NCBI RefSeq assembly: GCF_000620785.1
Contig: NZ_JIAI01000018.1
Coordinates: 89,187 to 113,186 of the forward strand
Source of the DNA: Pseudonocardia acaciae DSM 45401
Lineage (GTDB): Bacteria; Actinomycetota; Actinomycetes; Mycobacteriales; Pseudonocardiaceae
Direction of reading: 5' to 3'
DNA: 24,000 nt
Position 1 is the first letter of the stretch. Every line of letters begins with the position of its first letter. A program made the position numbers and the translations under genes. Under the pieces are notes generated by a model. The model made no database searches. It had not been told where the DNA came from and saw nothing but the letters and a program-made list of their open reading frames with translations. Shown one piece after another: positions 3,065-23,643 of the stretch.

Positions 3065-3075
3065 AGGGAACCACC

Positions 3076-3357
3076 ATGGACGTGGACCTGAACCTCACGG
3101 TCGCCGCCGACGGGCACGTCGGGTGCCGACACTGCGGTGCCCGGGTCGGGACGTCGAGCGCCACCCCGCTCGACCTGGCGAGGCGCTCCGAGCGGCCGTC
3201 CACCGCCGCCGGACCGGGGGTGCATGCCGACCCCGCCCGGTTCACCGACCGCCCGATCGCCCTGCGCCAGGCGTTCTGCCCCGGCTGCCTGGTGCTGCTG
3301 CACACCGAGATCGTCCCCGCCGACGAACCCACGTATCGAGAATGGAGCCTGCGATGA
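3076..3357 (+). CDS. Small Cys4 (zinc-ribbon-like) protein, acetone carboxylase gamma-subunit-like
   Basis: This ORF has no entry of its own in the ORF track. It is the last 93 codons of the 767-aa shadow ORF 1054-3357. ATG 3076 follows AAGGGA (3064-3069) by 6 nt and lies 11 nt after the hyuB stop. There are two Cys pairs, C17-R-H-C20 and C68-P-G-C71. The F-C-P-G-C-x-x-L-L-x-x-E context resembles the AcxC family (PF08882) as I remember it. GC3 is high. Its stop overlaps the next start (ATGA 3354-3357). Confidence 0.6.
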   Translation: MDVDLNLTVAADGHVGCRHCGARVGTSSATPLDLARRSERPSTAAGPGVHADPARFTDRPIALRQAFCPGCLVLLHTEIVPADEPTYREWSLR

Positions 3358-4801: not shown

Positions 4802-5796
4802 ATCACGTAGCTCTCCAGGGTCTCGGGCACGAAGAGCTCGTCGGGGGCGAGGCGGCGGTCGGTGAGGCCCTGTTCGTGGACGTAGCGGAGGAAGACGCCC
4901 AGGGTCGCGCGGTTGGGTTCGAGTCCGTAGGGCCAGAAGTCGGTGCCGAGCAGTTGTCTGGTCCGCTCCACCTCGTCGTAGAGCCAGGGCAGCATGTAGC
5001 GGTTCGCGGCGGTCTCGTTCATCCGCTCCTCGGTGGCGGCCTTGGCCCGCTCGAAGGCCGTGTAGAGCGAGCGGGCCAGCCATCGCCCGCGCTCGTACAC
5101 GTCGCGGCGGAGCACCACCAGGTGCATGATCGGGAAGATGCCGGTCTCGGCGGCGTAGCGCTGCTCGGCCGCGCGCGGGTCCTCGAACAGCCGCCGGACC
5201 TCGGGGCGGCCCTCGAGCAGGGGGCGCGGGGTGCGTGGCGCGTAGAGCGCGTCGATCTCCCCGGTGACCAGCATGTCGGCCAGCGTGCGGTCGGGTGGGA
5301 TCGGCGCGATGTCGATCTCGGGTGGCAGGCTGAGCCGTTGCTTCTCCACCCGCCCCGGCCGGTGCATACCGCCGGTGCGGTAGCGCACCGAGGACACCGG
5401 GACGTCGTAGTGGTCGGCGAGGATGCCTCGGATCCACACCGCGGCGGTGAGCTGGTACTCGGGCACGCCGACGGTCCGCCCGACCAGGTCGGACGGTTTC
5501 TCGATGCCGCTGTGGGCGTGGATGTAGATGCCGTTGTGCCGGAACGCGCGCGACGGGAACACCGGGATGGCCCGCATCGGCGTGCGCTCCGGGTCCGCCG
5601 CCAGCGCGGTGACGTAGGAGGACAGCGACATCTCGGCGGCCTCGAACTCCTGGTGGCGCAGCATCCGGAAGAAGGTCTCCTCGACCGGCAGGCACAGGTA
5701 GGTCAGGTCCACCCCCTCCGGGCGCACCGAGCCGTCCGCGAGCGGCTGCGTGCGGTCGTAGTCCCAGCAGGCCAGGGTGATCGGGATGCGGGTCAT
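4798..5796 (-). CDS. 4,5-dihydroxyphthalate decarboxylase-like protein (OphC/Pht5 type, NMT1/periplasmic-binding-like fold)
   Basis: This gene is the last 332 codons of track ORF 4798-7224. The N-terminus MTRIPITLACWDYDRTQPLADGSVRPEGVDL..EETFFRMLRHQEFEAAEMSLSSY matches the conserved N-terminal pattern I recall for this family. ATG 5794-5796 overlaps the upstream MFS stop (ATGA). Confidence 0.75.
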   Translation of the reverse strand: MTRIPITLACWDYDRTQPLADGSVRPEGVDLTYLCLPVEETFFRMLRHQEFEAAEMSLSSYVTALAADPERTPMRAIPVFPSRAFRHNGIYIHAHSGIEKPSDLVGRTVGVPEYQLTAAVWIRGILADHYDVPVSSVRYRTGGMHRPGRVEKQRLSLPPEIDIAPIPPDRTLADMLVTGEIDALYAPRTPRPLLEGRPEVRRLFEDPRAAEQRYAAETGIFPIMHLVVLRRDVYERGRWLARSLYTAFERAKAATEERMNETAANRYMLPWLYDEVERTRQLLGTDFWPYGLEPNRATLGVFLRYVHEQGLTDRRLAPDELFVPETLESYVI

Positions 5797-7148
5797 GCTG
5801 TCCCTTCTGACGGCGACGGGCCCATGCGTGCCTGACGGGCGTGACGGGCCTGACGGAGTGCGGCGGCGGCCAGGCCACCGACCAGGCACACGGCGCCGAG
5901 CACGGCGAACACACCGGCGACCGGCCAGGCGGCGGCGACCAGGGCGGCCACCAGCAACGGCCCGACGAACGAGCCGACCCGCCCGACGCCGAGCGCCCAG
6001 CCGACGCCGGTGGAGCGGATCGCCGTCCGGTACGCCACCGCGGCGAGGCCGATGACGCCCGAGCTGGCGCAGCCCAGGCCCACGCCGATCAGGATCTGCA
6101 TCCCGATCACCCCGGAGACCGACGGGGCGGCCACCCCGATGCCCGTGACACCGGCCGCGGCCAGCGCGAACGCCGAAGGGAGGACCCGCCGGACACCGAA
6201 CCGGGTGATCAGCCAGCCGCCGGCGGCCGTGGCGACGACGCTGCCGGCGTTGAACAGCGCCAGCGCCACCGCCGTGCGTGCGACCGGCACGCCGAGCGGG
6301 GCGAGCAGCGTGGGCGTCCAGGAGGAGTTGACCACGAGCACCCCGAACGAGGTGAAGGACGCGGCCCACAGCAACAGGGTGTTCGCCCGGCGCCCGGTGG
6401 CGAAGAGCTGGCCCACCGGGGCTCGCCGCTCCCGCTGTTCGACACCGGTGAAACGGGTGGACGCGTCGATCGTCAGCTCCGGGGCGACCCTGGCCAGGGT
6501 GCGCGCGATCCGCCGCACCGGCGCCCGGCGTGCCACCAGGAAGACCGGCGACTCGGGCAGCGACACCACGACGACCACCGCGACCACGAGCGGCGCGATC
6601 CCGCCGACCAGGAACAGGCCGTGCCAGCCCGCGGTGGGGATCAGCCGGCTGCCCAGCAGCCCGGCGAGCACACCGCCGACCGGGAAGCCGGCGAAGAGCA
6701 GACCGGCGACCGTGGCGCGGCGGTGGGCCGGCACGAACTCCGAGGCGAGGCTGATCGCGGACGGTATCGCGGCACCGAGCCCGAGCCCGGTGGCGAACCG
6801 AAAGGCCAGCAGCGCCGTGACGGCGTTCGCGGCCATCGTGGCCAGCGTGAACGCACCGAAGCAGAGCACCGCCGCGACCAGGACGACCTTGCGACCCACC
6901 CGGTCGGCCAGCGGCGCGAGCACCAGGCCGCCGATCGCCATGCCCGCGATCGCCGCCGAGAAGACCGCGCCCAGGCTGGCCGCCGGGATGCGCAGGTCGG
7001 CGGCGATGGCCGGCGCCGCCAGCCCGATGATCTGCAGGTCCATCCCGTCGAACAGCGCCACCAGCGCGCACAGCACCACCACCAGAGCCCTGACCGGGCC
7101 GATGCGCGGCCGCCCCATCAGCTCGCCGAGGTGGACCGTCCCGGTCAT
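5793..7148 (-). CDS. MFS transporter, aromatic acid:H+ symporter (AAHS, PcaK-like) family
   Basis: The sequence FDGMDLQIIGLAAPAIAADL..LADRVGRKVVL and about 12 hydrophobic segments fit this family. ATG 7146-7148 is preceded by GGGAGG (complement of 7155-7160) at 6 nt. The longer track start at 7235 lacks an RBS and lies in the AT-rich promoter patch. Confidence 0.85.
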   Translation of the reverse strand: MTGTVHLGELMGRPRIGPVRALVVVLCALVALFDGMDLQIIGLAAPAIAADLRIPAASLGAVFSAAIAGMAIGGLVLAPLADRVGRKVVLVAAVLCFGAFTLATMAANAVTALLAFRFATGLGLGAAIPSAISLASEFVPAHRRATVAGLLFAGFPVGGVLAGLLGSRLIPTAGWHGLFLVGGIAPLVVAVVVVVSLPESPVFLVARRAPVRRIARTLARVAPELTIDASTRFTGVEQRERRAPVGQLFATGRRANTLLLWAASFTSFGVLVVNSSWTPTLLAPLGVPVARTAVALALFNAGSVVATAAGGWLITRFGVRRVLPSAFALAAAGVTGIGVAAPSVSGVIGMQILIGVGLGCASSGVIGLAAVAYRTAIRSTGVGWALGVGRVGSFVGPLLVAALVAAAWPVAGVFAVLGAVCLVGGLAAAALRQARHARQARMGPSPSEGTA

Positions 7149-7304
7149 CGTCGACCTCCCTGGCGTCCGCCCCGCGCCGGCAGTTCCGACCCACCGTACA
7201 GCCCAGCGCGGCGGGCGATCGCAAAAGCGAAACAAATACTAGCCGTTCGGATTGAAGCTGTTGTAGTCTCCTGACGCTGCTACTGGCGAGGAGGCGCGGC
7301 CGCG
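7149..7304. promoter_or_regulatory. Divergent promoter/operator region between the MFS-decarboxylase operon (-) and the Rieske oxygenase operon (+)
   Basis: A 156-bp non-coding gap flanked by divergent starts, each with a strong Shine-Dalgarno (GGGAGG for the minus gene, GAGGAGG 7288-7294 for the plus gene). It contains an AT-rich island at about 7221-7270, unusual for this DNA. It also contains a degenerate GAAAC-N26-GTTGT element at 7229-7264. I could not assign -35/-10 boxes confidently. Confidence 0.5.
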
Positions 7305-8564
7305 ATGTTGAAGCCCGAAGAGAACGAGCTGTTGTGTCGCGTCGGCCCCGACACCGGCATGGGTGGGCTGCTGCGGCGCTACTGGCTGCCGGTCGCGTGC
7401 GGCGACGAGCTGGTTGCCGGCGGCGCTCCGATTCGAACCAGGCTGCTTTCGGAAGACCTGGTTGCGTTTCGTGATCCGGGCGGCCGGGTGGGGGTTCTGG
7501 ACGAGCACTGCCCGCACCGGGGGGCGTCGCTGAGCCTGGCCCGCAACGAGGAGTGCGGCCTTCGCTGCATCTACCACGGCTGGAAGATCGGCGCGGACGG
7601 TCGGGTTCGGGAGACGCCGTCCGAGCCGGAGTCGAGCTCGTTCCGGCATCGGATCAGGCACGCGGCGTACCCGGTCCACGAGAGCGGCGGCCTGGTGTGG
7701 GCCTACCTCGGCTCGCAGGACGCGCCGGAGCCTCGGGCCTTCGAGTGGACGCTGTTGCCCGCCTCCCATTACGTGGTGTTCAAGGCGCGGGTGGCCTGCA
7801 ACTGGGTCCAGGGGCTGGAAGGCGTGATCGACTCCGCGCACCTGACGCACCTGCACAAGGACCTGTTCTTCCGGGCCGGCGACGCGGCCGGCGGTGAGCG
7901 GCTGGGGTCGATCTCGATGGACGGAAGCCCTCGGCTGGAGATCGAGGACACCGCGTACGGCTTCCGTTACGCCGCGTTGCGGCGGGCCGGGGACGAGGCC
8001 AGCCGGCTGGTCCGCCTGTCCCATTTCGTGGCGCCGTGTTTCGGCCTGTTCGCCGGGCCGATGGCGCTGCCCAGCGTGCAGGCGTACGTGCCGGAGGACG
8101 ACCACAACACGGCGATGTACTTCGTGATCGCCGACCGGGAGAACCCCATCGGCGAGGACCTCAGGGCCGCGCTGCGCACGGCGCTGGGCATGGTTCCCGG
8201 GGTCGACCTGGACGCCGGGCTGCGCCGGGTCCGGCGCGCGGAGAACGGGTGGCTGCAGGACCGCGAGGCGATGGGGCGGGGGGAGACCTTCACCGGAATC
8301 GCGGGCGTGAACGCCGAGGACCAGGCCGTCCAGGAAAGCATGGGCAGGCTTTACGACCGCGGCCGTGAGCATCTCGGCACCAGCGATGTGGCGGTCATCC
8401 GGATGCGCCGCATCATGATCAATGCGGCTCGCCGGTACCTGCGGGGCGAGCGGGACGATCTGGTCGGGCTCGGCGCCGGCGCGCGGACCGACGAGCTGTG
8501 CGGGTTCGAACGGCTGGCCCCGGCGGCCGTCCCGTGGCAGGAACTGGTCGGTGCCGATGCCTGA
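7305..8564 (+). CDS. Rieske non-heme iron oxygenase, alpha subunit, phthalate-dioxygenase family (alpha-only type, like PDO/VanA/CarAa/LigXa)
   Basis: Rieske motif CPHRGASLSLARNEECGLRCIYHGW (CxH-x16-CxxH). Mononuclear iron motif DSAHLTHLH (D-x2-H-x4-H). The N-terminus EENELLCRVGPDTGMGGLLRRYWLPV is typical of this family. No beta-subunit gene follows. Confidence 0.9.
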   Translation: MLKPEENELLCRVGPDTGMGGLLRRYWLPVACGDELVAGGAPIRTRLLSEDLVAFRDPGGRVGVLDEHCPHRGASLSLARNEECGLRCIYHGWKIGADGRVRETPSEPESSSFRHRIRHAAYPVHESGGLVWAYLGSQDAPEPRAFEWTLLPASHYVVFKARVACNWVQGLEGVIDSAHLTHLHKDLFFRAGDAAGGERLGSISMDGSPRLEIEDTAYGFRYAALRRAGDEASRLVRLSHFVAPCFGLFAGPMALPSVQAYVPEDDHNTAMYFVIADRENPIGEDLRAALRTALGMVPGVDLDAGLRRVRRAENGWLQDREAMGRGETFTGIAGVNAEDQAVQESMGRLYDRGREHLGTSDVAVIRMRRIMINAARRYLRGERDDLVGLGAGARTDELCGFERLAPAAVPWQELVGADA

Positions 8565-8793
8565 GCGGCTGGTGTGGCGGGCCGGCGACGCGGAGGCGAC
8601 GACCGCGCAGCTGCTCGACGACGTGCGCCGGCTCATCGTCGAGGCGCGCGAGCGCGGCGAGGACCCCGGGGAGCTGGTCGTGGACGAGGCGACCCGGCGA
8701 GTGCTGGACCTGACCAAACGGCGTGAGGTGCAGCGCGGCCAGCCCGTGCTGGTGCTCGGGCTGCGCGTGGTGAGCGAGGAGCGGTCCCGATGA
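8557..8793 (+). CDS. Hypothetical small protein (78 aa), function unknown
   Basis: ATG 8557 overlaps the oxygenase stop by 8 nt (ATGCCTGA). Its stop overlaps the next start (ATGA 8790-8793). GC3 is about 90% when read codon by codon. I recognise no family. Confidence 0.55.
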   Translation: MPERLVWRAGDAEATTAQLLDDVRRLIVEARERGEDPGELVVDEATRRVLDLTKRREVQRGQPVLVLGLRVVSEERSR

Positions 8794-9152
8794 GCGTGCA
8801 CGTCGGTCGAGAGGCGGATTTCGCCGAGGGGGACCGCAGGCTCGTCGTGTCCGGCGACACCCAGATCGGGGTGTTCCGGTTGAGCGACGGGTTCGTCGCC
8901 TACGAGAACAAATGCGTGCACCAGGGTGGCCCGGTGTGCCAGGGGCAGTATTTCCCGAAAATGGAGGCCGTCCTGGACGCCGAGGGCCGGGTGCTGGGAG
9001 AACGGGCGAACCCCGGGATCGCGCATCTGGTGTGTCCGTGGCACAGCTGGGAGTACGACATACGCACCGGGCGGATGGCCGCCGATCCCAGGATTCGGCT
9101 GCGTCGTTTCGAGGTGGTCTGCCGGGATGGCGAGGTCTACGTTGTCGCCTGA
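8790..9152 (+). CDS. Rieske-type [2Fe-2S] ferredoxin-like protein (120 aa) with atypically long inter-motif spacing
   Basis: CVH (CxH) and CPWH (CxxH) motifs, with WEYDIRTG after the second motif as in Rieske ferredoxins. GAGGAG lies about 8 nt upstream of the ATG. It sits in an operon with a Rieske oxygenase. Confidence 0.8.
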   Translation: MSVHVGREADFAEGDRRLVVSGDTQIGVFRLSDGFVAYENKCVHQGGPVCQGQYFPKMEAVLDAEGRVLGERANPGIAHLVCPWHSWEYDIRTGRMAADPRIRLRRFEVVCRDGEVYVVA

Positions 9153-9420
9153 GCGAGCGGCCGAACTGTTGGAGTCGTATGTCGACGAGCCGGACCTGGT
9201 CGGCGACGACGAGGTCAGCCGACTTTTCACCGCGGCATTCCGGCTGTTCGTCCACCGCGCCCGCCAGGGACTGCATCCATTCGCCGGCGACGTCACGGCC
9301 ACCGACGTGGTGATCGCGGCGACCGCGATGCTGCGCCAGCAGAACCTGGAGGTCTTCGAGCTCGCACTGTGGCAGAGCTTCGGCGGGCAGCCGTGGGTGG
9401 GCGCGGACGGGAGGGAATGA
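9127..9420 (+). CDS. Hypothetical small protein (about 92-97 aa), function unknown
   Basis: This is the C-terminal part of track ORF 8926-9420. GC3 is about 87%. Its stop TGA 9418-9420 is embedded in the start region of the next gene. The start is uncertain: ATG 9127 gives a 26-nt overlap with the ferredoxin, while TTG 9142 is preceded by GAGG. I recognise no family. Confidence 0.5.
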   Translation: MARSTLSPERAAELLESYVDEPDLVGDDEVSRLFTAAFRLFVHRARQGLHPFAGDVTATDVVIAATAMLRQQNLEVFELALWQSFGGQPWVGADGRE

Positions 9421-9422
9421 CG

Positions 9423-10598
9423 ATGTCCTTGTACGACCGAAGCCAGGTGCCGGTCCCGAACATGCTCACGAACGCGCGCAAACAGGCCGAAGAACGCAAC
9501 CTGTACGACTTCACGATTGTCGACGTCGACTCGCACCACTACGAGGACACGTCGACCTGGCAGACCCTGGTGCCCTACATCGAGGACGACGGCATCAAGG
9601 CGTGGGCCAGGCACCAGTTCGACAGGCAGATGGCCACCCGCGCGGTCGGGGCGCCGATCGGCGACCAGGAGCTGGCCGGCCGCATCCTGCGCGGCGGGCT
9701 GGACGTCCCCGACGAGCTGCGCGCGGACCGGCACGACGGTCGAAACCCGCTGGTGGCGCGCACGCTGTGGGCCATGGACAACCTCGGCATCGACTACACC
9801 GTGCTGTTCCCCACCGTCATGTTGACCTTGGGGCTGCACCCGCAGGTGGAGGTCGAGGTCGCGCTCGCCCGCGCCTATGCGCGGTGGCTGACCCGTGATG
9901 TCCTGACCCGGGACGGGCGGATTCGGACGATGGTCTACCTCCCGTTCAACGACCCGGCCGCCGCGCTGCGCATGGTGCGCGAGTTCGCCGACGAACCCGG
10001 CGTGGTCGGTTTCATGGTGACCAGCGTCCGCTACCGCCAGGTGCACGCCAACGAGTACGTGCCGGTGTACGCGGAGCTGCAGGAGCGGGGCATGCCGCTG
10101 GCGTTCCACGCCGCGTACAACTGGCACGACCGGTCGATGGGAATGCTCAACAAGTTCATCTCCGTCCACGCCCTGGGTTTCACCACCACCAACATGATCC
10201 ACCTCACCAACATGGTGATGAACGGTATTCCGGAGCGTTTCCCCGGCCTGAAGGTGGTGTGGGTGGAAAGCGGCCTGGCCTGGATACCGTTCCTGATGCA
10301 GCGGCTGGACAACGAGTACCTGATGCGCTCCAGCGAGGCCCCGATGCTGACCCGGCTGCCCAGCGAGTACATGCGGGACATGTACTACTCCTCGCAGCCC
10401 ATGGAGCGCACGGCGAAGATCGAGGTCATCGAGAACACCTTCGACATGATCAATGCCGAGCGGCGCCTGCTGTACTCGTCCGACTATCCGCACTGGGACT
10501 TCGACACCCCCGCGGTGATCTACGACCTTCCTTTCCTGGGTGAGAAGGCCAAGCGCCGCATCCTGGGGGAGAACGCGATCGAGCTGTTCGGGCTCTGA
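9423..10598 (+). CDS. Amidohydrolase_2 (PF04909/COG2159-type) metal-dependent hydrolase/decarboxylase
   Basis: N-terminal ligand motif VDVDSHHYE and C-terminal YSSDYPHWDFD, typical of the ACMSD/LigW/LigY/LigJ superfamily. GGGAGGG at 9409-9415 is 7 nt before ATG 9423. ATG 9417 is an alternative start and would give an ATGA overlap. Confidence 0.85.
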   Translation: MSLYDRSQVPVPNMLTNARKQAEERNLYDFTIVDVDSHHYEDTSTWQTLVPYIEDDGIKAWARHQFDRQMATRAVGAPIGDQELAGRILRGGLDVPDELRADRHDGRNPLVARTLWAMDNLGIDYTVLFPTVMLTLGLHPQVEVEVALARAYARWLTRDVLTRDGRIRTMVYLPFNDPAAALRMVREFADEPGVVGFMVTSVRYRQVHANEYVPVYAELQERGMPLAFHAAYNWHDRSMGMLNKFISVHALGFTTTNMIHLTNMVMNGIPERFPGLKVVWVESGLAWIPFLMQRLDNEYLMRSSEAPMLTRLPSEYMRDMYYSSQPMERTAKIEVIENTFDMINAERRLLYSSDYPHWDFDTPAVIYDLPFLGEKAKRRILGENAIELFGL

Positions 10599-10612
10599 GG
10601 AGAGACGGGATC

Positions 10613-11641
10613 ATGGCAGAGATCTGCACGGTCATATGCACCTCGCATTCGCCGTACCTGTTCGCGTCCGCGCGAGAATGGCGGCAGGCGCGGGACGAAC
10701 GGTCCAGGCAGGGCACGCTCGACGAGGCGGTCCCGCTCGACACGCCCGAGGAGAACGAGCGGAAGTTCCAGCGGTGCATGACCGCCCTGGCCACGCTGCG
10801 CGAGCGGCTCGACGCCGCGCGCCCCGACGTGCTGCTGGTGTTCGGCGACGACCAGGGCGAGCAGTTCAGCTTCACCAACTTCCCGGCGTTGGGGATCTTC
10901 GTCGGCCCGGGCTTCGAGGGATACAAGGTGTCCCGCTACTTCGGGCTCCCGATCATCGGGACGGCGCGGCCGACCAGGCCGAAGAGCATCGAGCACTGGG
11001 TCGCGGTCAAGGGCCATCCGAACCTGGCCAGGTACCTGATGGAGACCCTGACCGAGGACCGGTTCGACCTGGCCTTCTGCACCGGGCTGGCGGACATCGA
11101 GGAGGGCATGGGCCACGCCTTCATGCGCCCGTCCTACTACCTGCGCCCGGACTACGACCTGCCCACCGTCCCGTTCTTCATCAACTGCTACTACGCGCCG
11201 CAGCCGACCGGGCTGCGCTGCTACCAGCTGGGCCGCGCGGTCCGGGCCCGGATCGAGGCGTGGGACCAGGACCTGCGGGTCGCGGTGATCGGCTCGGGCG
11301 GGCTGTGGCACACCCCGGGCATGGCCGACGCCGGCCTGGACGAGGAGTTCAACAGGGGAGTCCTGGAGGCCGTGCGCCTCGGCGACGCACGGGCGATGGC
11401 CGACCACTTCGACGGCTGGGCGCTGGGCGCCGCGAACGTCTCGGACCGGGACACCGAGGCGTTCGCGGTGGCCAGCGGCGGGACGGGCATGCGAGGCGGG
11501 CTGGGCAGCGGCAGCGGGGAGACCCGCAACTGGATAGCGGCCTCGGCGGTGGCCGACGGGGCGGCGGGCACCGTCGTCGACTACGTGCCCGTCTACGACT
11601 CGCCGGTCGGTATGGCCTTCGCCCACTGGGAGCGGCCGTGA
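10613..11641 (+). CDS. Class III extradiol ring-cleavage dioxygenase, LigB family (single-subunit type, 342 aa)
   Basis: By eye it aligns without gaps to LigB/MhpB segments I recall. These are CTSHSP (His12), FGDDQGEQFSFTNFPALGI (equivalent to NDHASAF..IPTFAIG), VKGHPNLA, GHAFMRP, GSGGLWHTPG (catalytic His) and GETRNWIAA (Glu ligand). GGAGAG RBS upstream. Confidence 0.85.
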   Translation: MAEICTVICTSHSPYLFASAREWRQARDERSRQGTLDEAVPLDTPEENERKFQRCMTALATLRERLDAARPDVLLVFGDDQGEQFSFTNFPALGIFVGPGFEGYKVSRYFGLPIIGTARPTRPKSIEHWVAVKGHPNLARYLMETLTEDRFDLAFCTGLADIEEGMGHAFMRPSYYLRPDYDLPTVPFFINCYYAPQPTGLRCYQLGRAVRARIEAWDQDLRVAVIGSGGLWHTPGMADAGLDEEFNRGVLEAVRLGDARAMADHFDGWALGAANVSDRDTEAFAVASGGTGMRGGLGSGSGETRNWIAASAVADGAAGTVVDYVPVYDSPVGMAFAHWERP

Positions 11642-11660
11642 CCGGGACGGGGTGCTGACC

Positions 11661-12752
11661 ATGTACCACGGCGTCGCCGTCATCGACACCCACGGACACA
11701 TGTCCACACCGCCACAGTTCCGCGCCTACGCCTACAACCTGATCGCGCTGCGCAGCCCGGCCGCGATGCGGCTGAGCATCCCCGACGAGCAGATGGACGG
11801 GGCGCTGCGCCGCCACCTGCGGATCATGGACGAGCGCGCCATCGACCTGCAGCTCGTCTCCCCCCGACCGGTGGCGATGATGCACTGGGAGCGGCCGTTC
11901 CTGGTCCAGGCGTGGACCGAGACCACGAACGACGTCATCGCGTCGCAGTGCCGTGCCCATCCGACCCGGCTGGCGGGGGTGGCGCAGCTGCCGCAGAGCT
12001 CCGAGTGCGACACCGCCAACTGCGTCGCCGAGCTGCAACGGCGGGTGGCCGAGGGCTTCGTGGGCGCGCTGGTCAACCCGGACCCCGGCGCGGACCGCCG
12101 CACGCCCGCGATGAGCGAGCCGTACTGGTTCCCGCTCTACGAGGCGGCGCAGGACCTGGGGGCGACGCTGGTCGTGCACCCGTCGATCAGCCGCGACCCC
12201 CGGCTGGAGGCCGTCTCCCACGGCTACCAGCAGCACAACATGGCCGAGGAGACGCTCGCGACGATGCATCTCGAACAGGGGGAGGTGTTCGAGCGCTACC
12301 CCGGCCTGCGGGTCCTGGTGTGCCACTGCGGCGGCGCGCCGCGCCGGCTGCTCCAGGCGGGGCAGCGACTGCGGGTGGGCGCCTCGGAGGTGGTGGTGCG
12401 GTCCAGCGCCGAACGGGAAGGCGGCCAGGTCGGCATGCCGGTCACCGAGGTGGCGCGGACCCGGCGGGACCTGCGCGCCAACCTGTTCTTCGACACCTGC
12501 GCCTACGACCCGGACTTCCTCGCGACGGCGATCAGGCAGCGCGGGGTGGCCCAGATGGTGTTCGGCACCGAGGCCCCCGGCGCCGGCACCGGCGTGCTCA
12601 ACCCGGTCACCGGCCGCCCCTCCGACGACCTGGTGCCGGTGATCGACGCGATGGACTTCCTCAGCGCCGAGGACCGAACCCAGATCCTGCACCACAACCC
12701 CCGCGCCGCGTTCCCCCTGTTGCCCGAGCCCCAGGCGAGGAAAAGCCGATGA
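11661..12752 (+). CDS. Amidohydrolase_2 family protein, LigJ-like (4-oxalomesaconate hydratase-type)
   Basis: IDTHGH (HxH), DLQLVSPRP, VNPDP, YWFPLYEAA, VCHCGGA, LFFDTCAY and FGTEAPGAG..LSAEDRTQILHHN parallel the LigJ sequence as I remember it. GTG 11652 is an alternative start. The stop overlaps the next start (ATGA 12749-12752). Confidence 0.8.
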   Translation: MYHGVAVIDTHGHMSTPPQFRAYAYNLIALRSPAAMRLSIPDEQMDGALRRHLRIMDERAIDLQLVSPRPVAMMHWERPFLVQAWTETTNDVIASQCRAHPTRLAGVAQLPQSSECDTANCVAELQRRVAEGFVGALVNPDPGADRRTPAMSEPYWFPLYEAAQDLGATLVVHPSISRDPRLEAVSHGYQQHNMAEETLATMHLEQGEVFERYPGLRVLVCHCGGAPRRLLQAGQRLRVGASEVVVRSSAEREGGQVGMPVTEVARTRRDLRANLFFDTCAYDPDFLATAIRQRGVAQMVFGTEAPGAGTGVLNPVTGRPSDDLVPVIDAMDFLSAEDRTQILHHNPRAAFPLLPEPQARKSR

Positions 12753-13879
12753 ACGAGCCGTTGCTGCTTGTGCCCGGTCCGTGCACCGTCGAGCCCGACG
12801 TGCTCGCCACCCTCGGGCGGCCCGTCCCGCTTCACTACGGACCGCACTGGACGGCCACCTACGACCGGCTGCGGCGGCAGCTGGCGGAGGTGTTCGGTAC
12901 CGCCGGCGAGGTCCACCTGTTGTTCGGGCCCGGCTCGGCCGGCATGGAGATGACCTTGGGCAGCGTCCTCGCGCCCGGCGACGAGCTGGTCGTGGTGGTG
13001 GAGGGCATCTTCGGGCAGCGGCTGGTCGAGATCGCGCGGACGTTGGGCCTGGTCGTGCACGAGCTGCGCACCGAGGGCACCCGGCCGGCGGGCGGTGAGG
13101 AGCTTGCCGCGATGCTGGGCGGGCACCCGGCCGTTCGGGCGGTCGCGATGGTGCACCACGAGACGGGGACGGGCGTGCTCACCCCGGTCGAGCGGCTGTG
13201 CCGCACCGCCAGGGCGGCGGGGCTGATCACCGTGGTGGACGCGATCTCCTCGCTGGGCGGCGCGCCGCTGCGGATGGACGACTGGGGTGTCGATCTGTGC
13301 GTCACGGTGGCCAACAAGTGCCTCGGCGGGCCGGTCGGGGTGGCGCCGGTCGCGGTGGGTCCCCGCGCGCTGGAGCTGATCAGCGCCCCGCCCGCGCGGC
13401 GGCGCAAGGCGGTCGGGTGGTACCTCGACCTGGCCACCTGGCACCGCTATCAGGACATGTGGTCCAGCTGGCACCCGCACCCGACCACGATGCCCGGCAA
13501 CGTGGTGCACGCGCTCGCCACCGCGACGGACCGGATCTTCGAGGTCGGGCTGGACGCGCACCATCGGCGGATCGCCGCCGCCGCGCGGCAGGCCCGGGGT
13601 GGGCTGCGCGCCCTCGGCCTGTGCACCCTGGTGCCGGACGAGATCGCCGCCCCGGCGGTGACCTCGGTGCGGGCGCCGGACGGCATGGACGTCGACCACT
13701 ACCTGCGATGGCTGGTCGACAAGCACGGCATGCTGGCCGCGGCCGGGCTGCCCCCGCACGCCGGCGCCTCGTTCCGGGTCGGGCACATGGGCCGGGCCGC
13801 CGAGCCAGGGGTCGTCACCGACTGGTTGGACGCCACCCGGGACTACCTGCGCATCGAGGGCATCGGGGCGCGGTCGTGA
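12749..13879 (+). CDS. Class V (AGXT/PhnW-like) PLP-dependent aminotransferase
   Basis: This is the last 376 codons of track ORF 11912-13879. It has LLLVPGPCTV at the N-terminus. The PLP-lysine motif VTVANKCLGGP resembles the SANKC motif of 2-aminoethylphosphonate:pyruvate aminotransferase rather than the SQK of AGT-type enzymes. Start and stop are both coupled to neighbours. Confidence 0.85.
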   Translation: MNEPLLLVPGPCTVEPDVLATLGRPVPLHYGPHWTATYDRLRRQLAEVFGTAGEVHLLFGPGSAGMEMTLGSVLAPGDELVVVVEGIFGQRLVEIARTLGLVVHELRTEGTRPAGGEELAAMLGGHPAVRAVAMVHHETGTGVLTPVERLCRTARAAGLITVVDAISSLGGAPLRMDDWGVDLCVTVANKCLGGPVGVAPVAVGPRALELISAPPARRRKAVGWYLDLATWHRYQDMWSSWHPHPTTMPGNVVHALATATDRIFEVGLDAHHRRIAAAARQARGGLRALGLCTLVPDEIAAPAVTSVRAPDGMDVDHYLRWLVDKHGMLAAAGLPPHAGASFRVGHMGRAAEPGVVTDWLDATRDYLRIEGIGARS

Positions 13880-15525
13880 CCGGCGCCGACGCGCTGCTGG
13901 ACGCCCTCGCCGACGGCGGCGTGCGGGCCATCTTCACGGTGCCCGGGGTGCAGCTCGACGCGCTGTTCGACGCCCTGGCCCGTCGGGACGGCGCGTTCCG
14001 GGTCTGGCACACCCGCCACGAGCAGGCCACCTCGTACATGGCCGACGGCTACACCCGGGTCAGCGGCGAGCCGTCCTGCTGCCTGGTCGTTCCCGGACCC
14101 GGGCTGCTCAACGCCACCGCAGGCCTGGCCACCGCGTACGCCCGCAACACCCCGATCCTGTGTGTGGCCGGGCAGATCCCGTCGGCCACCATCGGCGCGC
14201 AGCTCGGCCAGCTGCACGAGCTGCGGGACCAGGCGGCCGCGCTGCGCGCCGTGGTGAAGTGGTCCACCACCGTGATGCGGCCCGGCGAGCTGGGTCCGGC
14301 GGTGGCCGAGGCACTGCGCCGGATGCGCACCGGCCGTCCGCGCCCGGTCGCCGTGGAGGTGCCCCCCGACGTGCTGGAAGCGGCCCGCCCGCCGACCGAC
14401 CGGGCCGCGACCGACCCGGCCGGCCCGGCCGACCCGAGCGACGCGTGGACGCCGGACCCGGATCCGGACGACCTGGACCGGGCCGCCGCGCTGCTCACCG
14501 CGGCGCAACGGCCGTTGGTCCTGGCCGGCGGCGGGGTGCTCGTCGCGGGCGCCTGGGACGAGCTGCGCGAGCTGGCCGAGCGCGCCGGCGCCCCGGTCGT
14601 CATGACGGCCGACGGCAAGGGCGCCCTCGACGCGCGCCACCCGCTGGCCTGCGAGCCGACCCTCGGACCTCGCCTGACGCCCACCGCGGACGTGATCCTG
14701 GCCGTGGGCACCCGCCTCGGCCTCCCGATGGGCCGGCGGCTGCCGTTCGGGCCCGACCAGAGGCTGGTCAGGATCGACGCGGACGCGGCCGAGCTGCGCC
14801 GCGAGGTCAGCCCCGAGATCGCCATCCACGCCGACGCCCGCCTCGCCCTCGCCCAGCTCGCCGAGCGACTGCCCCGCTCCGGCCGAACCCCGAGCTGGCC
14901 CGACCTGACCCGGCTGCGGGAGGACGCGGCGGCCACGGTGCTCGCCCTGAGGCCGCAGGCCCACTACGGCGAGGCGATCCGCCGCGCCGTCCCCGAGGAC
15001 GGCATCGTCGTGGCCGGGATGACCCAGATCGGGTACTGGTGCCGGCTCGGCTTCCCGGTGTGGCGGCCGCGAACCTTCCTCACACCCGGTTACCAGGGCA
15101 CGCTCGGCTTCGAGCTGCCCACCGGGCTCGGCGCCCAGCTCGCCGCGCCGGACACCCCGGTGGTCGTGCTGGCCGGCGACGGCGGGTTCCTGTTCAACGT
15201 CCAGGAGCTCGCCACCGCGGTGCTGCACGACATCCCGGTGGTGGCCGTGGTGTTCAACGACGGCGCCTACGGCAACGTCCGGCGTACCCAGATGGAGCGG
15301 TTCGACGGACGCTGCATCGCCTCGGAGCTGCACAACCCGGACTTCCCGGCGTTGGCGGAGTCGTTCGGGGTGCGCGGGGTCCGCGCGGTCGGTCCGGACG
15401 CGCTGGAGCGTGCCCTCGGCGCCGCGATCGAGGCCCGCCGGCCCACGGTGATCGAGGTTCCGGTCGGGCCGATGCCCGACCCGTGGGCGATGCTCACCAT
15501 GAAACACGAACGAGTAAGTCGTTAA
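13876..15525 (+). CDS. Thiamine diphosphate-dependent enzyme (acetolactate synthase large subunit / benzoylformate decarboxylase-like, 549 aa)
   Basis: GTG 13876 overlaps the upstream stop (GTGA). The N-terminal PYR domain reads GADALLDALADGGVRAIFTVPG..HEQATSYMADGY. The ThDP motif is GDGGFLFNVQELATAV..VVFNDGAYG. It ends with the only TAA stop in the window, inside an AT-rich patch. Confidence 0.9.
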   Translation: MTGADALLDALADGGVRAIFTVPGVQLDALFDALARRDGAFRVWHTRHEQATSYMADGYTRVSGEPSCCLVVPGPGLLNATAGLATAYARNTPILCVAGQIPSATIGAQLGQLHELRDQAAALRAVVKWSTTVMRPGELGPAVAEALRRMRTGRPRPVAVEVPPDVLEAARPPTDRAATDPAGPADPSDAWTPDPDPDDLDRAAALLTAAQRPLVLAGGGVLVAGAWDELRELAERAGAPVVMTADGKGALDARHPLACEPTLGPRLTPTADVILAVGTRLGLPMGRRLPFGPDQRLVRIDADAAELRREVSPEIAIHADARLALAQLAERLPRSGRTPSWPDLTRLREDAAATVLALRPQAHYGEAIRRAVPEDGIVVAGMTQIGYWCRLGFPVWRPRTFLTPGYQGTLGFELPTGLGAQLAAPDTPVVVLAGDGGFLFNVQELATAVLHDIPVVAVVFNDGAYGNVRRTQMERFDGRCIASELHNPDFPALAESFGVRGVRAVGPDALERALGAAIEARRPTVIEVPVGPMPDPWAMLTMKHERVSR

Positions 15526-15545: not shown

Positions 15546-16394
15546 TCAAGTTGGATAGCGGGTCACGGCTTGCTGGTAGTACTTCGCGGCGGGTTCTTCC
15601 AAGATCCCGTAGACGCGCAGGAAGAGCTGGTGGGCAATTCGACCCCGCCAGTCGTTCGGGAGCAGTCGGGGATGCAGGTCCGGATCATGGAATGAGGCGT
15701 TGCGATAGCCGTAGAGCACCTCGACCCGCAGCGCGAACGAGTCCTGGTCGCTGAGATCGGCCAGCGCCGCGTCGTCGAACCGGGAGTAGCGGTCGATGAA
15801 CTCGGCGTACTCCTCGTTGAGGCGCCGCAGGTCCCAGCAGCGGTTCGCCATGACCCGGTCGTGCTCCGCGGAGATGCTGCTCGCGACCAGCGGGTCCAGC
15901 CGCAGCTCGGGCTCCTCGCCGATCTCCTCCAGCGCCGCGTCGAGCCGGTCGTGGCTACAGATCCAGGTGGAGGTCGCCAACGGCCCGAACCCGTGCCAGT
16001 CCAGGATGCGGCGGATGCGGATGCGGGTGGCGCGACGGGCCTCCGGCACCGTGTAGATGATCATTCGCCATCTGCCGTCCCACAGGTCACCGTCGCGCCG
16101 GTAGAGCCGGCCCTCGCCGGCCCGCATGAGCTGGCTGGTCTGGTCGGTCATGGTGATCACGCTGCGCCGGCCCTCGCGCTGCACCGCTACCCAGCCCTCC
16201 CGGCGCAGGCGCGAGATGACGACCCTGGTGGCGTCGGGGGACGTGCCGAAGGCGCCCATGAGCTCGGCCATGGCCTGCATGCTGATGCGGCCCGTGTCGT
16301 GCCGGACGAACCCCCCGAGCAGGTCCAGGACGATCTCACGGGCCGGAATGGTCGGCCGGTCCCCGGTCGACCCACTTGTTCGCGTGCTACCCAC
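15546..16394 (-). CDS. paaX: PaaX-family transcriptional repressor (phenylacetyl-CoA-responsive regulator family)
   Basis: A 282-aa ORF with a GTG start (complement of 16392-16394) preceded by GAGGGG at 5 nt. It has an N-terminal winged-helix region (IVLDLLGGF..ISMQAMAELMGAFG..ATRVVISRLRREGW). The central and C-terminal segments are PaaX-like (WDGRWRMIIYTVPE..R..IRRILDWHGFGPL). Confidence 0.9.
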   Translation of the reverse strand: MGSTRTSGSTGDRPTIPAREIVLDLLGGFVRHDTGRISMQAMAELMGAFGTSPDATRVVISRLRREGWVAVQREGRRSVITMTDQTSQLMRAGEGRLYRRDGDLWDGRWRMIIYTVPEARRATRIRIRRILDWHGFGPLATSTWICSHDRLDAALEEIGEEPELRLDPLVASSISAEHDRVMANRCWDLRRLNEEYAEFIDRYSRFDDAALADLSDQDSFALRVEVLYGYRNASFHDPDLHPRLLPNDWRGRIAHQLFLRVYGILEEPAAKYYQQAVTRYPT

Positions 16395-16484
16395 GGCGGC
16401 CCCTCGGTGAGCTTCGGTTCCCTCGAACTATAGGCAGTCCCCCGGGGTGCCCTCGTCGCCGCGCCGGGCTGCCCGGCCGAGATC

Positions 16485-16530
16485 AATATGAAACTAGTAG
16501 TTGCCGGACGGATAGATTTCGTTTCATACT
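16485..16530. promoter_or_regulatory. Candidate PaaX-type operator: AATATGAAAC-N26-GTTTCATACT in the paaX/MFS divergent region
   Basis: Read directly: 10-bp arms (16485-16494 and 16521-16530) are complementary at 9 of 10 positions, with a 26-nt spacer. The repeat lies in an AT-rich island of the 169-bp divergent gap. The right arm overlaps a -10-like CATACT (16525-16530) that is 18 nt downstream of TTGCCG (16501-16506). Short half-sites about 26-27 bp apart match what I recall of E. coli PaaX operators. Confidence 0.55.
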
Positions 16531-16563
16531 GAGTGTCCTCCGTCACACCATGGGAGCTGCGCA

Positions 16564-17838
16564 ATGTTCCGTTGGGTTGTTGCCGCCTTCCTCACCCTGT
16601 ACACGATGATCAACGTCGTGGACCGGGTCGCGATCTCGGTCGGGACCGAACCGATCACCCGTGAGCTGGGCCTCAACCCCGCGCAGTGGGGGTTGGTGCT
16701 GGGGGTCTTCTTCGTCGGCCTGGTACCGGCAACGATCGCGACCGGCTACCTCGCCGATCGCCACGGCGCCCGGCGATGGCAGCTCATCGGCGCGACCTCC
16801 TGGTCGCTGCTCACCGCGGCGACCACCCTGGTCAACAGCTTCGGAGCGCTCCTGGTGGTGCGGTTCCTGTTCGGGGTCGGCGAGGGGCCCGGCGGCTCCG
16901 TCGGCGGCCGGGTGATCGCCAACTGGATTCCGGCCCGGCAACGCGGCAGGACGTTCAGCATGATCATGGTCGGCATCCAGCTGGCCCCGGCCCTGGGCGT
17001 CCCGCTGATCGCCTGGATCATGGTCGAGCTGGGCTGGCGCCCGGCGTTTCTCATCCTCGGCGGTGTCGGCCTGCTGTGGGTGCTGGCCTGGCGGGTGATC
17101 TTCACCGACGATCCGGCCCGCAACCGATTCGTCGGCGAACGCGAGCTCGCCGTCATCCAGCGGGGCATCACCACACCCGAGCACCTGCGGGCCGTCCCGG
17201 AAACCGGGCTCCGTCCCGACAGGATGAGGACCCTCGCCGGGTGCTTCTGGGGAATGTTCTGCACCGGCTACCTTCTCTACTTCCTGCTCACCTGGTTACC
17301 GGGCTACTTCTCGATGGCTCGAGGGCTGGACCTGAAACAGATGGGTGTGGCGGCGAGCCTGCCCTGGCTCGGTGGGGTCCTCGGCGTGCTGCTCGGGGGG
17401 CTGCTCACCGACCGCATCCTGGCCCGAACCGGCCGGTTCCGCTGGGCGCGGGCCTATCCGGCCTCGGCGGCCCTGCTGGTGTCCGCGATCGGCCTCTACA
17501 TCTGCGCGAGCGCCGTCTCCCTTCCCGCCGCCATCGCCCTGCTCGCCCTGGTCAGCTTCTGCCTCGGCTGGATCGGCCCCGTGCTCAGCTCCGTCGTGCT
17601 CGACGTGACCTGGCGGCGCGCCGGCCTGTTCTCCGGCGTCAGCCAGGCGCTCGAGGCCACCGCGGGCGTCGTCGCACCGGTGCTCACCGGCGTCATCGTC
17701 AACCGATCCGGCTCGTTCGACCTCGCGTTCACCATCGCCGCCCTGGTCGCGGCCAGCGGGGCCGTCGCGGTCTTCGGCCTGGTCCGGCACGCGGGCGACG
17801 CGTCGACGGCGCCGGAACGCCAGAAGGAGTCACGGTGA
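16564..17838 (+). CDS. MFS transporter, anion:cation symporter (ACS) family (OphD/HpaX/DgoT-like organic-acid permease)
   Basis: The N-terminus FLTLYTMINVVDRVAISVGTEPITRELGL and LFGVGEGPGGSV..NWIPARQRGR are typical of ACS-family MFS proteins. GGGAG lies 7 nt before ATG 16564. There are about 12 hydrophobic segments. Confidence 0.85.
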   Translation: MFRWVVAAFLTLYTMINVVDRVAISVGTEPITRELGLNPAQWGLVLGVFFVGLVPATIATGYLADRHGARRWQLIGATSWSLLTAATTLVNSFGALLVVRFLFGVGEGPGGSVGGRVIANWIPARQRGRTFSMIMVGIQLAPALGVPLIAWIMVELGWRPAFLILGGVGLLWVLAWRVIFTDDPARNRFVGERELAVIQRGITTPEHLRAVPETGLRPDRMRTLAGCFWGMFCTGYLLYFLLTWLPGYFSMARGLDLKQMGVAASLPWLGGVLGVLLGGLLTDRILARTGRFRWARAYPASAALLVSAIGLYICASAVSLPAAIALLALVSFCLGWIGPVLSSVVLDVTWRRAGLFSGVSQALEATAGVVAPVLTGVIVNRSGSFDLAFTIAALVAASGAVAVFGLVRHAGDASTAPERQKESR

Positions 17839-17849
17839 GACACGCTCAC
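17835..17849. repeat. Short inverted repeat GTGAG-acacg-CTCAC spanning both convergent stop codons
   Basis: Read directly. The left arm contains the MFS stop TGA (17836-17838). The right arm contains the complement of the acylase stop (17846-17848). Only 7 nt separate the two convergent CDSs. Terminator function is unproven. Confidence 0.4.
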
Positions 17850-20968: not shown

Positions 20969-20987
20969 GGCCGCCAGTTTCCCCCAT

Positions 20988-21057: not shown

Positions 21058-21085
21058 CCACCCGACCCGATAAGGCACGTACTCG

Positions 21086-22438: not shown

Positions 22439-22440
22439 TT

Positions 22441-23196: not shown

Positions 23197-23215
23197 GCAC
23201 GATCGAGGAGGGCCA

Positions 23216-23638: not shown

Positions 23639-23643
23639 GCGGG

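Follow-up and report, generated by a model that had tools for sequence, protein, structure and literature searches.

A putative composite operon for aromatic-acid catabolism in Pseudonocardia acaciae, with a predicted dinuclear oxygenase and a transaminase–ThDP enzyme pair in the aldolase position

Introduction

What becomes of an aromatic ring-fission product when the genes that follow the ring-cleavage dioxygenase encode no aldolase but an aminotransferase and a thiamine diphosphate (ThDP)-dependent enzyme? The question is raised by a 24,000-nucleotide (nt) stretch of the genome of Pseudonocardia acaciae DSM 45401, hereafter the window, which bears nine consecutive genes on the + strand between positions 7305 and 15525. 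These genes are lettered A to I (Table 1). A first-pass annotation had described them as a single translationally coupled operon with a non-canonical lower pathway for which it knew no described counterpart, and had read the fifth gene, E, as an ordinary amidohydrolase.

The favoured explanation is a composite, lineage-specific P. acaciae catabolic operon for an aromatic carboxylic acid. A ring-cleavage core (A, F and G), which recurs in several bacterial phyla, would be supplemented in it with a second oxygenase, E, assigned to the amidohydrolase-related dinuclear oxygenases (AROs), and with the terminal pair H–I, which occupies the place of the aldolase genes of the closest relatives. This three-layer model as a whole is given a probability of about one half. 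The proposal that H and I act on the product of G is more tentative than the model that contains it.

Composition and layout of the operon

Coding frames were taken from a plot of GC content at the third codon position (GC3); raw lists of open reading frames (ORFs) are unreliable at the 72% G+C of the window. The frame plot and the GC3 of the individual genes (0.84–0.96) bear out nine consecutive genes, flanked on both sides by other operons. Pfam and NCBIfam agree on the families that had been assigned to them in this order: Rieske and LigXa_C domains in A, no match for B, a Rieske ferredoxin domain in C, no match for D, Amidohydro_2 in E, LigB in F, Amidohydro_2 in G, Aminotran_5 in H, and three TPP_enzyme domains in I. 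Every gene of the window has a similar GC3 (0.84–0.97), and differences in GC content between genes arise at codon positions 1 and 2.

The previously claimed six stop/start overlaps and two gaps shorter than 20 nt are found at all eight junctions. A and B overlap by 8 nt (A ends at 8564 and B starts at 8557), B and C share an ATGA (8790–8793), and C and D overlap by 11 nt if D starts at the TTG at 9142, which is the start of a 92-residue database representative 99% identical to D, or by 26 nt if it starts at the ATG at 9127. The stop codon of D lies on the start of E in another ATGA (9417–9420); G and H likewise meet in ATGA (12749–12752), and H and I in GTGA (13876–13879). The 14 nt gap between E and F contains a GAGGAG ribosome-binding site, while F and G are separated by 19 nt if G starts at 11661, or by 10 nt if it starts at the alternative GTG at 11652. 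A terminator scan revealed no terminator-like site between any of the nine genes; the one match inside the unit (15167–15184) falls within gene I, at a frequency equal to chance expectation. A scan for sigma-70-type promoters gave no site, a result that is uninformative for an actinomycete, and no RNA element or riboswitch reached the Rfam gathering thresholds.

None of the 24 proteins predicted in the window, inside or outside the operon, belongs to the LigC (GFO/IDH/MocA), LigI, LigU or LigK families, and the window has no RraA-like gene. The claimed absence of a LigC-type dehydrogenase, an isomerase and a LigK-type aldolase therefore holds for the operon and for the whole 24 kb, but the annotation that counted these steps as missing had overlooked the upstream hydantoinase A/B, short-chain dehydrogenase/reductase (SDR), class II aldolase-family and transporter genes, which recur beside related Rieske/LigB/LigJ-like sets in other genomes and may supply some of them. 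A literature search found no characterised pathway of this composition.

Table 1. Genes of the P. acaciae operon and features flanking it in the window
Gene	Assignment	Position	Strand	Support or remark
A	alpha-only Rieske oxygenase, phthalate-dioxygenase clade	7305–8564	+	Pfam LigXa_C 3e-54, Rieske 6e-15
B	78-residue protein	8557–8793	+	GC3 0.96 in non-overlapping part, 0.92 in whole gene
C	120-residue Rieske-type [2Fe-2S] ferredoxin	8790–9152	+	Pfam Rieske 7.5e-13, Rieske_2, Rieske_4
D	~92–97-residue protein	9142 (or 9127)–9420	+	GC3 0.89 in frame
E	predicted amidohydrolase-related dinuclear oxygenase (ARO)	9417–10598	+	Pfam PF04909 Amidohydro_2, E 4.5e-28, residues 119–393
F	LigB-type (class III) extradiol ring-cleavage dioxygenase, divergent subfamily	10613–11641	+	Pfam LigB 2.5e-21
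G	LigJ/LigY-clade metal-dependent hydratase or C–C hydrolase	11661 (or 11652)–12752	+	Pfam Amidohydro_2 2e-36
H	class V (AGXT/PhnW/PPAT-like) pyridoxal phosphate (PLP)-dependent aminotransferase	12749–13879	+	Pfam Aminotran_5 6e-20
I	ThDP-dependent enzyme, acetolactate-synthase-like fold, PRK08266 subfamily	13876–15525	+	three TPP_enzyme domains
	aromatic-acid/H+ symporter-type major facilitator superfamily (MFS) transporter	5793–7235	-	Pfam MFS_1, Sugar_tr
	332-residue cytoplasmic protein without obvious signal peptide	4798–5796	-	ATGA-coupled to transporter gene
	five-gene operon: hydantoinase A (cut at window edge), hydantoinase B, 98-residue ORF, SDR, class II aldolase-family protein	3–4801	+	
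	PaaX-like regulator (-), MFS transporter (+), penicillin-amidase-family protein (-)	15546–20116		separate units
	IclR regulator (-), divergent from MFS transporter, SDR, cupin, second SDR (+)	20189–24000		continues past window end

Gene E and its neighbours

The reading of the fifth gene as a LigW-, LigY- or LigI-like amidohydrolase had to be abandoned, as E carries both ARO motifs and its five best solved relatives are all AROs: 8SM7 (3e-44), 8SM9, 8SM6 (SfbO), 6M1W/8FUL (AibH1H2) and 8SM8. The AROs PtmU3 and DitZ appear further down the match list. All these AROs were described between 2023 and 2026. AROs form a recently recognised superfamily of ~17,000 members, mostly misannotated as “amidohydrolases”, which is defined by an N-terminal D-x-H motif and a C-terminal D-x-P-H-x-D/E motif preceded by ~200 or more residues; no characterised PF04909 hydrolase or decarboxylase has the pair of motifs (PMC13154177). 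In E, the first motif is D38-S-H40 within FTIVDVDSHH, aligned with VIDTDIHH of 8SM9. The second, D356-Y-P-H-W-D361, has 355 residues ahead of it; its counterpart in the alignment is DYPHWD in 8SM7, 8SM9 and SfbO, and DYPHFD in AibH. E is ~38–40% identical to the best solved ARO, as read off the printed alignment; this relative is an orphan, and the published studies did not establish native substrates for the orphan AROs that they characterised (PMC10811679, PMC13154177).

A partnership with a ferredoxin is suggested both by the protein and by its gene neighbourhood. The gamma5 residue of AROs has been implicated in docking of the Rieske ferredoxin, and the Mn-preferring L-ARO has a hydrophobic gamma1, a hydrophilic gamma2 and an aromatic gamma4 residue (PMC13154177). 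W360 (gamma4) and F362 (gamma5) of E, aligned to W341 and W343 of SfbO, form a pattern typical of the ferredoxin-partnered, Mn-preferring class, as far as can be told from gamma4 and gamma5, the two positions mapped. AROs were discovered bioinformatically via their adjacency to small Rieske ferredoxins (PMC10811679), the criterion being such a gene within three genes, and ferredoxin gene C lies two genes upstream of E. With every testable sequence feature of the superfamily present, E is assigned to the AROs and is predicted to be a ferredoxin-dependent Mn/Fe or Fe2 monooxygenase. Two ferredoxin-dependent oxygenases, and not an oxygenase and a hydrolase, would therefore precede ring cleavage. 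The analogies with the dehydrodivanillate (DDVA) and carbazole pathways that had been drawn for gene 5 fail because of the ARO motifs.

The product of C bears the motif C42-x-H44...C82-x-x-H85 and matches Rieske_4, described as ‘soluble Rieske-type ferredoxin’. It is predicted to donate electrons to E and possibly also to A, in which case one ferredoxin would serve both oxygenases. Phthalate dioxygenase, a relative of A, is supplied with electrons by a reductase, with no Rieske ferredoxin in between.

The small ORFs B and D both look like real genes, judging from the coding-type GC3 of each and from the homologues of D (202 cluster representatives at E ≤ 1e-3, each of ~80–130 residues, in which a VTATD...FELxLWQxWGG motif is common). 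B has no Pfam or NCBIfam match and no relative in any fetched locus, and its single-sequence AlphaFold model, of moderate confidence (pLDDT 69.6), has a beta-alpha-beta-alpha-beta layout. For D, neither a Pfam match (36 family members tried) nor a PDB match was obtained by profile search, which returned noise alone; no D-like ORF occurs in any other fetched locus, and the predicted structure is of low confidence (pLDDT 58). As the stop codon of D overlaps the start of the ARO gene, D could be an ARO accessory protein.

Like AibH1H2/AibG, SfbO/SfbR, PtmU3 and DitZ, E combines the PF04909 fold and both motifs with aromatic gamma4 and gamma5 residues and a nearby ferredoxin, but none of the characterised AROs covered in these studies has its gene next to that of a Rieske oxygenase or within an operon for aromatic ring cleavage (PMC10811679, PMC13154177). 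The interleaved small proteins B and D are a further difference. By its company, namely genes for a transporter of aromatic acids, for a Rieske oxygenase and ferredoxin and for a ring-cleavage dioxygenase, this ARO gene narrows the search for a physiological ARO substrate.

Gene A and the substrate of the operon

The best solved relative of A is the phthalate 4,5-dioxygenase PDO-KF1 from Comamonas testosteroni (7FJL, E 7e-95, 43.8% identity over the full length). A shares the alpha-only Rieske architecture and the LigXa_C-type catalytic domain with PDO-KF1 (PMC8649396) and with the DDVA O-demethylase LigXa, and it retains the Rieske motif (C69-x-H...C-x-x-H), the Fe ligands H179, H184 and D339, and the bridging Asp. 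In phthalate dioxygenase, Arg207 and Arg244 clamp the ortho-dicarboxylate, and the loss of either abolishes phthalate turnover (PMC8649396). A keeps the equivalents of Arg244 (R237) and of Arg231 (R226), but has Ser202 in place of Arg207 and differs from PDO-KF1 at three further pocket positions (Ser182 to Leu180, Phe278 to Met271 and Phe339 to Val335). Because of these replacements, above all that of the essential Arg207, a role of A as phthalate dioxygenase was ruled out. The P. acaciae operon also has no gene for a cis-diol dehydrogenase. A probably binds an aromatic mono-carboxylate, and the kept Arg244 equivalent, together with the divergently encoded transporter, points to an aromatic acid as the substrate of the operon.

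The conserved ring-cleavage core

F is distant from the structurally known LigB (1B4U, 3.5e-15) and from the gallate dioxygenase DesB (2e-11), and all its NCBIfam matches are far under the cut-offs. Orthologues of F (52–65% identity) lie directly upstream of G orthologues in seven of the database loci compared, which are designated by L numbers (L014, L019, L022, L025, L026, L066 and L166).

G is about equally distant from LigY (5e-46) and LigJ (4e-41), being roughly one third identical to the latter, and no NCBIfam model matches it. Its residues H11-G-H13, H173, H222, D278 and E304 align with metal-binding or catalytic positions of LigY and LigJ and are invariant in the G family, which also shares an insertion of ~40 residues relative to both. 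The ARO motif pair, searched for in G as well, is absent. On these sequence features, G is placed in a third subfamily beside LigJ and LigY, no member of which appears to have been characterised. The family is unusually conserved, with ~60% identity across Actinomycetota, Proteobacteria, Chloroflexota, Binatia and Eremiobacterota and ~90 invariant positions among 26 sequences.

The neighbourhood of G was surveyed in 80 loci, 75 obtained through an alignment of G homologues (Proteobacteria, Chloroflexota, Binatia, Eremiobacterota and others) and five through look-ups of exact proteins. When all window proteins were compared with these loci by tblastn, an A-like Rieske gene was detected in 42 and a LigB gene in 27; hydantoinase A/B was present in ~8 and a class II aldolase-family gene in ~7, Aldolase_II adjoining G in at least six. 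Unbiased clustering of the ORFs within 6 kb of G gave the same first two partners, Rieske (29 loci) and LigB (18), followed by ABC/NMT1-type transport, GFO/IDH/MocA, LysR, Zn-dependent alcohol dehydrogenase, Aldolase_II and RraA-like aldolase families. No aminotransferase or ThDP family was among the families clustered within this distance in the 80 loci. A, F and G thus form a conserved core, co-occurring in many of the ~80 loci from several phyla.

In the three closest relatives of G (64–66% identity), RraA-like (LigK-type) aldolase genes stand directly downstream of G. The gene order is Rieske-LigB-G-RraA-RraA in L166, which has the closest relative of the F–G pair (65% identity for each), LigB-G-RraA in L165, and AldolaseII-G-RraA-RraA-LigB-Rieske-GFO/IDH/MocA-cupin in L079; coupling of an RraA-like aldolase with G is seen in six loci overall. 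The presence of LigK-type aldolases after G favours a LigJ-like hydratase role and a monoaryl route of the gallate or protocatechuate type. In Sphingobium sp. SYK-6, the protocatechuate 4,5-cleavage/gallate pathway (LigAB or DesB, LigC, LigI, LigU, LigJ, LigK) likewise relies on a LigB-superfamily dioxygenase followed by a LigJ/LigY-clade Amidohydro_2 enzyme, and the relatives of F–G add to these the RraA-like (LigK-family) aldolases and, in some loci, a GFO/IDH/MocA (LigC-family) dehydrogenase. Compared with the SYK-6 enzymes, F and G are divergent, and H–I are found in the position of the aldolase. Set against L166, the P. acaciae layout differs in two places: B-C-D-E separate the Rieske gene from the LigB gene, and H–I take the position of the LigK-type aldolase genes.

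Another variant of the toolkit is seen in L078 (a contig of GCA_030157125.1). After its G homologue (62% identity) come ABC transporter genes and then genes for a LigXa-type Rieske enzyme, a GFO/IDH/MocA dehydrogenase, two solute-binding proteins and a UbiD-family (prenyl-FMN-type) decarboxylase. Genes of the Meth_synt_2 family (cobalamin-independent methionine-synthase-like) adjoin G homologues in L022 (7663–8850) and L077 (8546–9775). L077 also has ThDP genes near its G homologue; these were considered as counterparts of I and rejected, as they are not its close relatives.

The terminal pair H–I

H stays under the NCBIfam cut-offs in all cases: 196.9 against 600 for pyridoxamine-pyruvate transaminase, 195.2 against 360.8 for PhnW-AepZ, and 161 against 400.8 for a third model. 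Its best relative in the PDB is alanine-glyoxylate aminotransferase (2e-46), the conserved N189-K190 is presumed to hold the PLP-binding lysine, and the nearest homologue outside the species is 57% identical.

I passes the cut-off of one NCBIfam model alone, that of the unnamed subfamily PRK08266 (655 bits against 571). The second match is PRK07524, the AruI-type 5-guanidino-2-oxopentanoate (2-ketoarginine) decarboxylase, with 390 against a cut-off of 500; acetolactate synthase (TIGR00118, 331.9 against 538) and Xsc (244–254 against 620–676) are also under their cut-offs. The residues expected for ThDP enzymes are present, namely the catalytic glutamate E49 in RHEQATSY and G434-D-G...N461-D462. 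The nearest homologues outside the species are 60% identical, belong mostly to Dormibacterota and stand alone in unrelated contexts. Two of them, in Dormibacterota-like contigs, adjoin a DNA_binding_1 (methyltransferase-type) gene and have Meth_synt_2 genes within a few kb (L082, 63–1178; L083, 5844–6974).

AruH/AruI, and Ppd or Xsc with PhnW/Tpa, also join a transaminase to a ThDP enzyme whose substrate is the 2-oxoacid or aldehyde so formed. Here the likeness is functional only, the scores of H and I being below the curated cut-offs, and no phosphonate, sulfonate or arginine genes are located nearby. AruH, moreover, belongs to another class of aminotransferases than H. Recent horizontal acquisition of the pair was also considered and rejected on composition, given the uniform GC3.

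Proposed pathway and its alternatives

In the favoured pathway, an aromatic acid would be imported and hydroxylated or O-demethylated on the ring by A, the oxygenase of the core. E, with electrons supplied via C, may perform a second oxygenation or dealkylation needed before ring cleavage. Together, acting through C and an unlinked reductase, the two oxygenases would yield a catechol- or gallate-type ring. This ring would be cleaved by F, and G would hydrate (less likely hydrolyse) the fission product to give an aliphatic 2-oxoacid. H and I, in the aldolase slot of the relatives, might then transaminate and decarboxylate a 2-oxoacid or aldehyde of the pathway, either replacing aldol cleavage or working alongside it. 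The genes for a ferredoxin reductase and, if one takes part, for an aldehyde dehydrogenase must lie outside the operon.

Participation of H and I is supported by the G/H and H/I overlaps, which are kept in a ~95%-identical strain (L164), and the idea of a transaminase working with a decarboxylase by the AruI model, the nearest named relative of I, which represents a 2-oxoacid decarboxylase partnered with a transaminase. The slot after G, filled with RraA-like genes in L165, L166 and L079, makes a route in which the aldolase is replaced with a transaminase and a decarboxylase positionally plausible in this one lineage.

Several observations count against this pathway. The co-conservation of H and I with ring-cleavage genes that the first-pass annotation had led one to expect did not materialise: no relative of H or I is found near the ring-cleavage genes in the 80 loci with G relatives, no I-, A-, E-, F- or G-like gene near H in 80 metagenomic loci with H homologues (46–56% identity), and no H or ring-cleavage gene near I in the four loci with I relatives. 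Nor are H and I neighbours of each other elsewhere; the one other contig with an H-I-PaaX arrangement, L164, is identical at ~95% of nucleotides and effectively of the same lineage, and the databases hold no relatives of intermediate distance with which the co-conservation of the pair could be compared. Comparison across genomes gives no sign that H and I belong to the pathway. Where the neighbourhood of H recurs and is annotated (L135), it contains M20 and M24 peptidases, an SDR and a flavin amine oxidase, a set indicative of amine or amino-acid catabolism. Tight packing is not peculiar to this unit either: 11 of the 15 same-strand junctions across the window, those of the neighbouring operons included, are overlaps, and a 4 nt overlap is the norm. 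The claim of a single coupled unit consequently stands for the packing, which argues for co-transcription, but overlaps so common in the window neither set the unit apart nor prove a shared pathway. Furthermore, the P. acaciae genome may have an aldolase gene outside the window, and decarboxylation of the product of G would require further enzymes from outside the operon. Hydrolysis by G, although less likely than hydration, cannot be distinguished from it by sequence. Finally, to our knowledge, aromatic acids are not yet among the demonstrated substrates of any ARO.

A more specific version of the favoured pathway couples a role of I with one of E. It would provide an aldolase-independent exit from a meta-cleavage route of the gallate or protocatechuate type. 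I would decarboxylate 4-carboxy-4-hydroxy-2-oxoadipate, the product of G if its reaction is LigJ-like, and the resulting citrate-semialdehyde-type compound would need a single oxidation to become citrate or could be transaminated by H, with no split into pyruvate and oxaloacetate. At the same time, E would oxygenate or demethylate an aromatic acid, sharing its ferredoxin with the Rieske oxygenase; it would, for example, help to strip a syringate-like substrate of its two methyl groups and be the first such ARO. The citrate-semialdehyde part was arrived at because of chemical structures alone, and the two proposals taken jointly are improbable.

If H and I do process the ring-fission product, a new link between meta-cleavage of the lignin type and central metabolism would follow, and it could help in funnelling aromatics to products beyond pyruvate and oxaloacetate. 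If they do not, the operon is a caution that tight overlap in a high-GC operon does not in itself indicate a shared pathway. In either case, the non-canonical lower pathway is proposed from the genes of a single lineage.

Of the competing explanations, the one that survives best, although it is on the unlikely side, is that H–I, probably with E, tailor a nitrogen-bearing side chain in the manner of the Ehrlich pathway or of AruH–AruI, by transamination followed by decarboxylation, the aldolase being provided from elsewhere. The substrate would be an aromatic compound with an aminoalkyl or amino-acid substituent, processed before or alongside ring cleavage. The model closest to I among the named ones, a 2-ketoarginine decarboxylase, suits this explanation, and so do the amine oxidase and peptidases in the H neighbourhood of L135 and the shared SDR gene that precedes the H homologue by a few kb in 24 of the 80 loci. 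The characterised AROs AibH and SfbO hydroxylate C–H bonds of amino acids or beside an amine nitrogen (PMC10811679). The genes that P. acaciae has in addition to those of L166 (B, C, D, E, H and I) could be one functional add-on, and a PaaX-like regulator gene and a penicillin-amidase-family gene are located just downstream. However, these last two are separate transcription units, and the candidate operator repeat described below is absent upstream of A. Direct evidence for an amino-substituted substrate is lacking, H–I adjoin not E but G, in the aldolase slot, and enzymes of the AGXT/PhnW type mostly take small substrates, even though the matches of H include 3-hydroxykynurenine and pyridoxamine transaminases.

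It is rather unlikely that H and I are co-transcribed passengers, i.e., general enzymes of pyruvate, glyoxylate or amine metabolism, with the rest of the lower pathway left to a LigK-type aldolase and other enzymes from elsewhere in the genome, or to the SDR and class II aldolase-family proteins of the upstream operon. The complete lack of co-conservation, both of the pair with ring-cleavage genes and of H with I, is what such passengers would leave behind; genes of both families occur widely, and on their own, in soil bacteria, 4 nt overlaps are the default of the window, and the recurrent partners of G are Aldolase_II, hydantoinase A/B and GFO/IDH/MocA, not H or I. On the other side, the stop/start overlaps at G/H and H/I imply obligatory co-transcription and probably coupled translation, the GC3 of H and I (0.95) matches that of the operon and indicates that the insertion is not recent, and the arrangement is retained in the second strain. 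Besides, H–I replace the aldolase genes of the relatives rather than follow them.

A DDVA-like biaryl pathway, with a LigW/LigY-type gene 5, G as a meta-cleavage-product hydrolase and A as a LigXa-type O-demethylase, is very improbable: it draws on the strong LigXa_C domain of A, on the marginally closer similarity of G to LigY than to LigJ and on a TonB receptor gene that adjoins the F–G pair in a gammaproteobacterial locus and recalls DDVA uptake in the SYK-6 system, but E has both ARO motifs and matches LigW at 4e-11 as against 3e-44 for an ARO, leaving no LigW-type decarboxylase, the LigK-type aldolases after the closest relatives of G fit a monoaryl LigJ-like hydratase, and the transporter is of the monoaryl-acid type.

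Other known systems

One parallel among actinobacterial clusters is that for lumichrome (vitamin B2) degradation in Nocardioides simplex, which likewise combines a Rieske dioxygenase with an extradiol catechol dioxygenase. It also encodes hydrolases, and a ThDP-dependent decarboxylase that acts on a 2-oxoacid-like intermediate before ring cleavage (PMC12746152). As a known match for the combination of Rieske, extradiol and ThDP enzymes it was rejected, because its components and layout differ: the Rieske enzyme is of the alpha-beta type with its own reductase, the ThDP enzyme is split into 20 and 23 kDa parts, a xanthine oxidase and a P450 are present, and there is neither an ARO nor an aminotransferase, so that the layout is not homologous to that of P. 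acaciae (PMC12746152). A parallel with vitamin B6 catabolism (PPAT-like aminotransferase, pyridoxal-dehydrogenase-like SDR and class II aldolase-type decarboxylase) was also discarded, the scores being generic and far below the cut-offs.

Flanking genes

The MFS transporter gene is divergent from A, at a distance of 69 nt. Its product matches TIGR00895 (6e-99), PcaK (2e-80) and MhpT (4e-75), in each case below the NCBIfam cut-off, and it is the probable uptake system of the pathway. The 332-residue protein encoded next to it has no Pfam or NCBIfam assignment; its fold is weakly SsuA/TauA-like, the likeness being stronger for its one clear homologue (35% identity, E 7e-68), encoded beside a Rieske oxygenase gene in L036. 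The idea of a 4,5-dihydroxyphthalate-decarboxylase-like protein was confirmed neither by family searches, which gave just this weak SsuA/TauA likeness, nor by a literature search.

In the upstream five-gene operon, identified on the basis of Pfam, every junction is a 4 nt overlap. The NCBIfam matches, all below cut-off, are caprolactamase- or acetophenone-carboxylase-like and PhtC-decarboxylase-like. Hydantoinase A/B recurs together with LigB and a LigXa-type Rieske gene in alphaproteobacterial (Stellaceae-type) loci (L034, L036, L039, L042, L044 and L065). In the fully annotated L039, the hydantoinase A/B genes lie between the LigB and Rieske genes, in one operon divergent from G, and the tblastn matches in L042, L044 and other alphaproteobacterial loci are laid out in the same way. 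An ATP-dependent enzyme of the hydantoinase/carboxylase type thus seems to be a recurrent partner of the ring-cleavage set. The upstream operon is probably part of the same catabolic island, and, in view of the L039-like loci, positions 3–15525 of the window are best seen as one such island.

Directly downstream of the operon, the PaaX-like regulator gene is divergent from an MFS transporter gene and is accompanied by a penicillin-amidase-family gene, an association reminiscent of E. coli, in which PaaX controls a penicillin acylase. A link of the PaaX and amidase genes to the operon is possible. The divergent PaaX/MFS promoter region holds an AT-rich inverted repeat, TCAATATGAAAC / GTTTCATACTGA (16483–16532), whose 12 nt arms are 26 nt apart and which is a candidate operator. 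A link between the PaaX-like regulator and the operon by way of this repeat was rejected, as the repeat has no copy upstream of A. The remainder of the window is occupied by a putative catabolic unit, in which the IclR regulator gene is divergent from genes of an MFS transporter, an SDR, a cupin and a second SDR.

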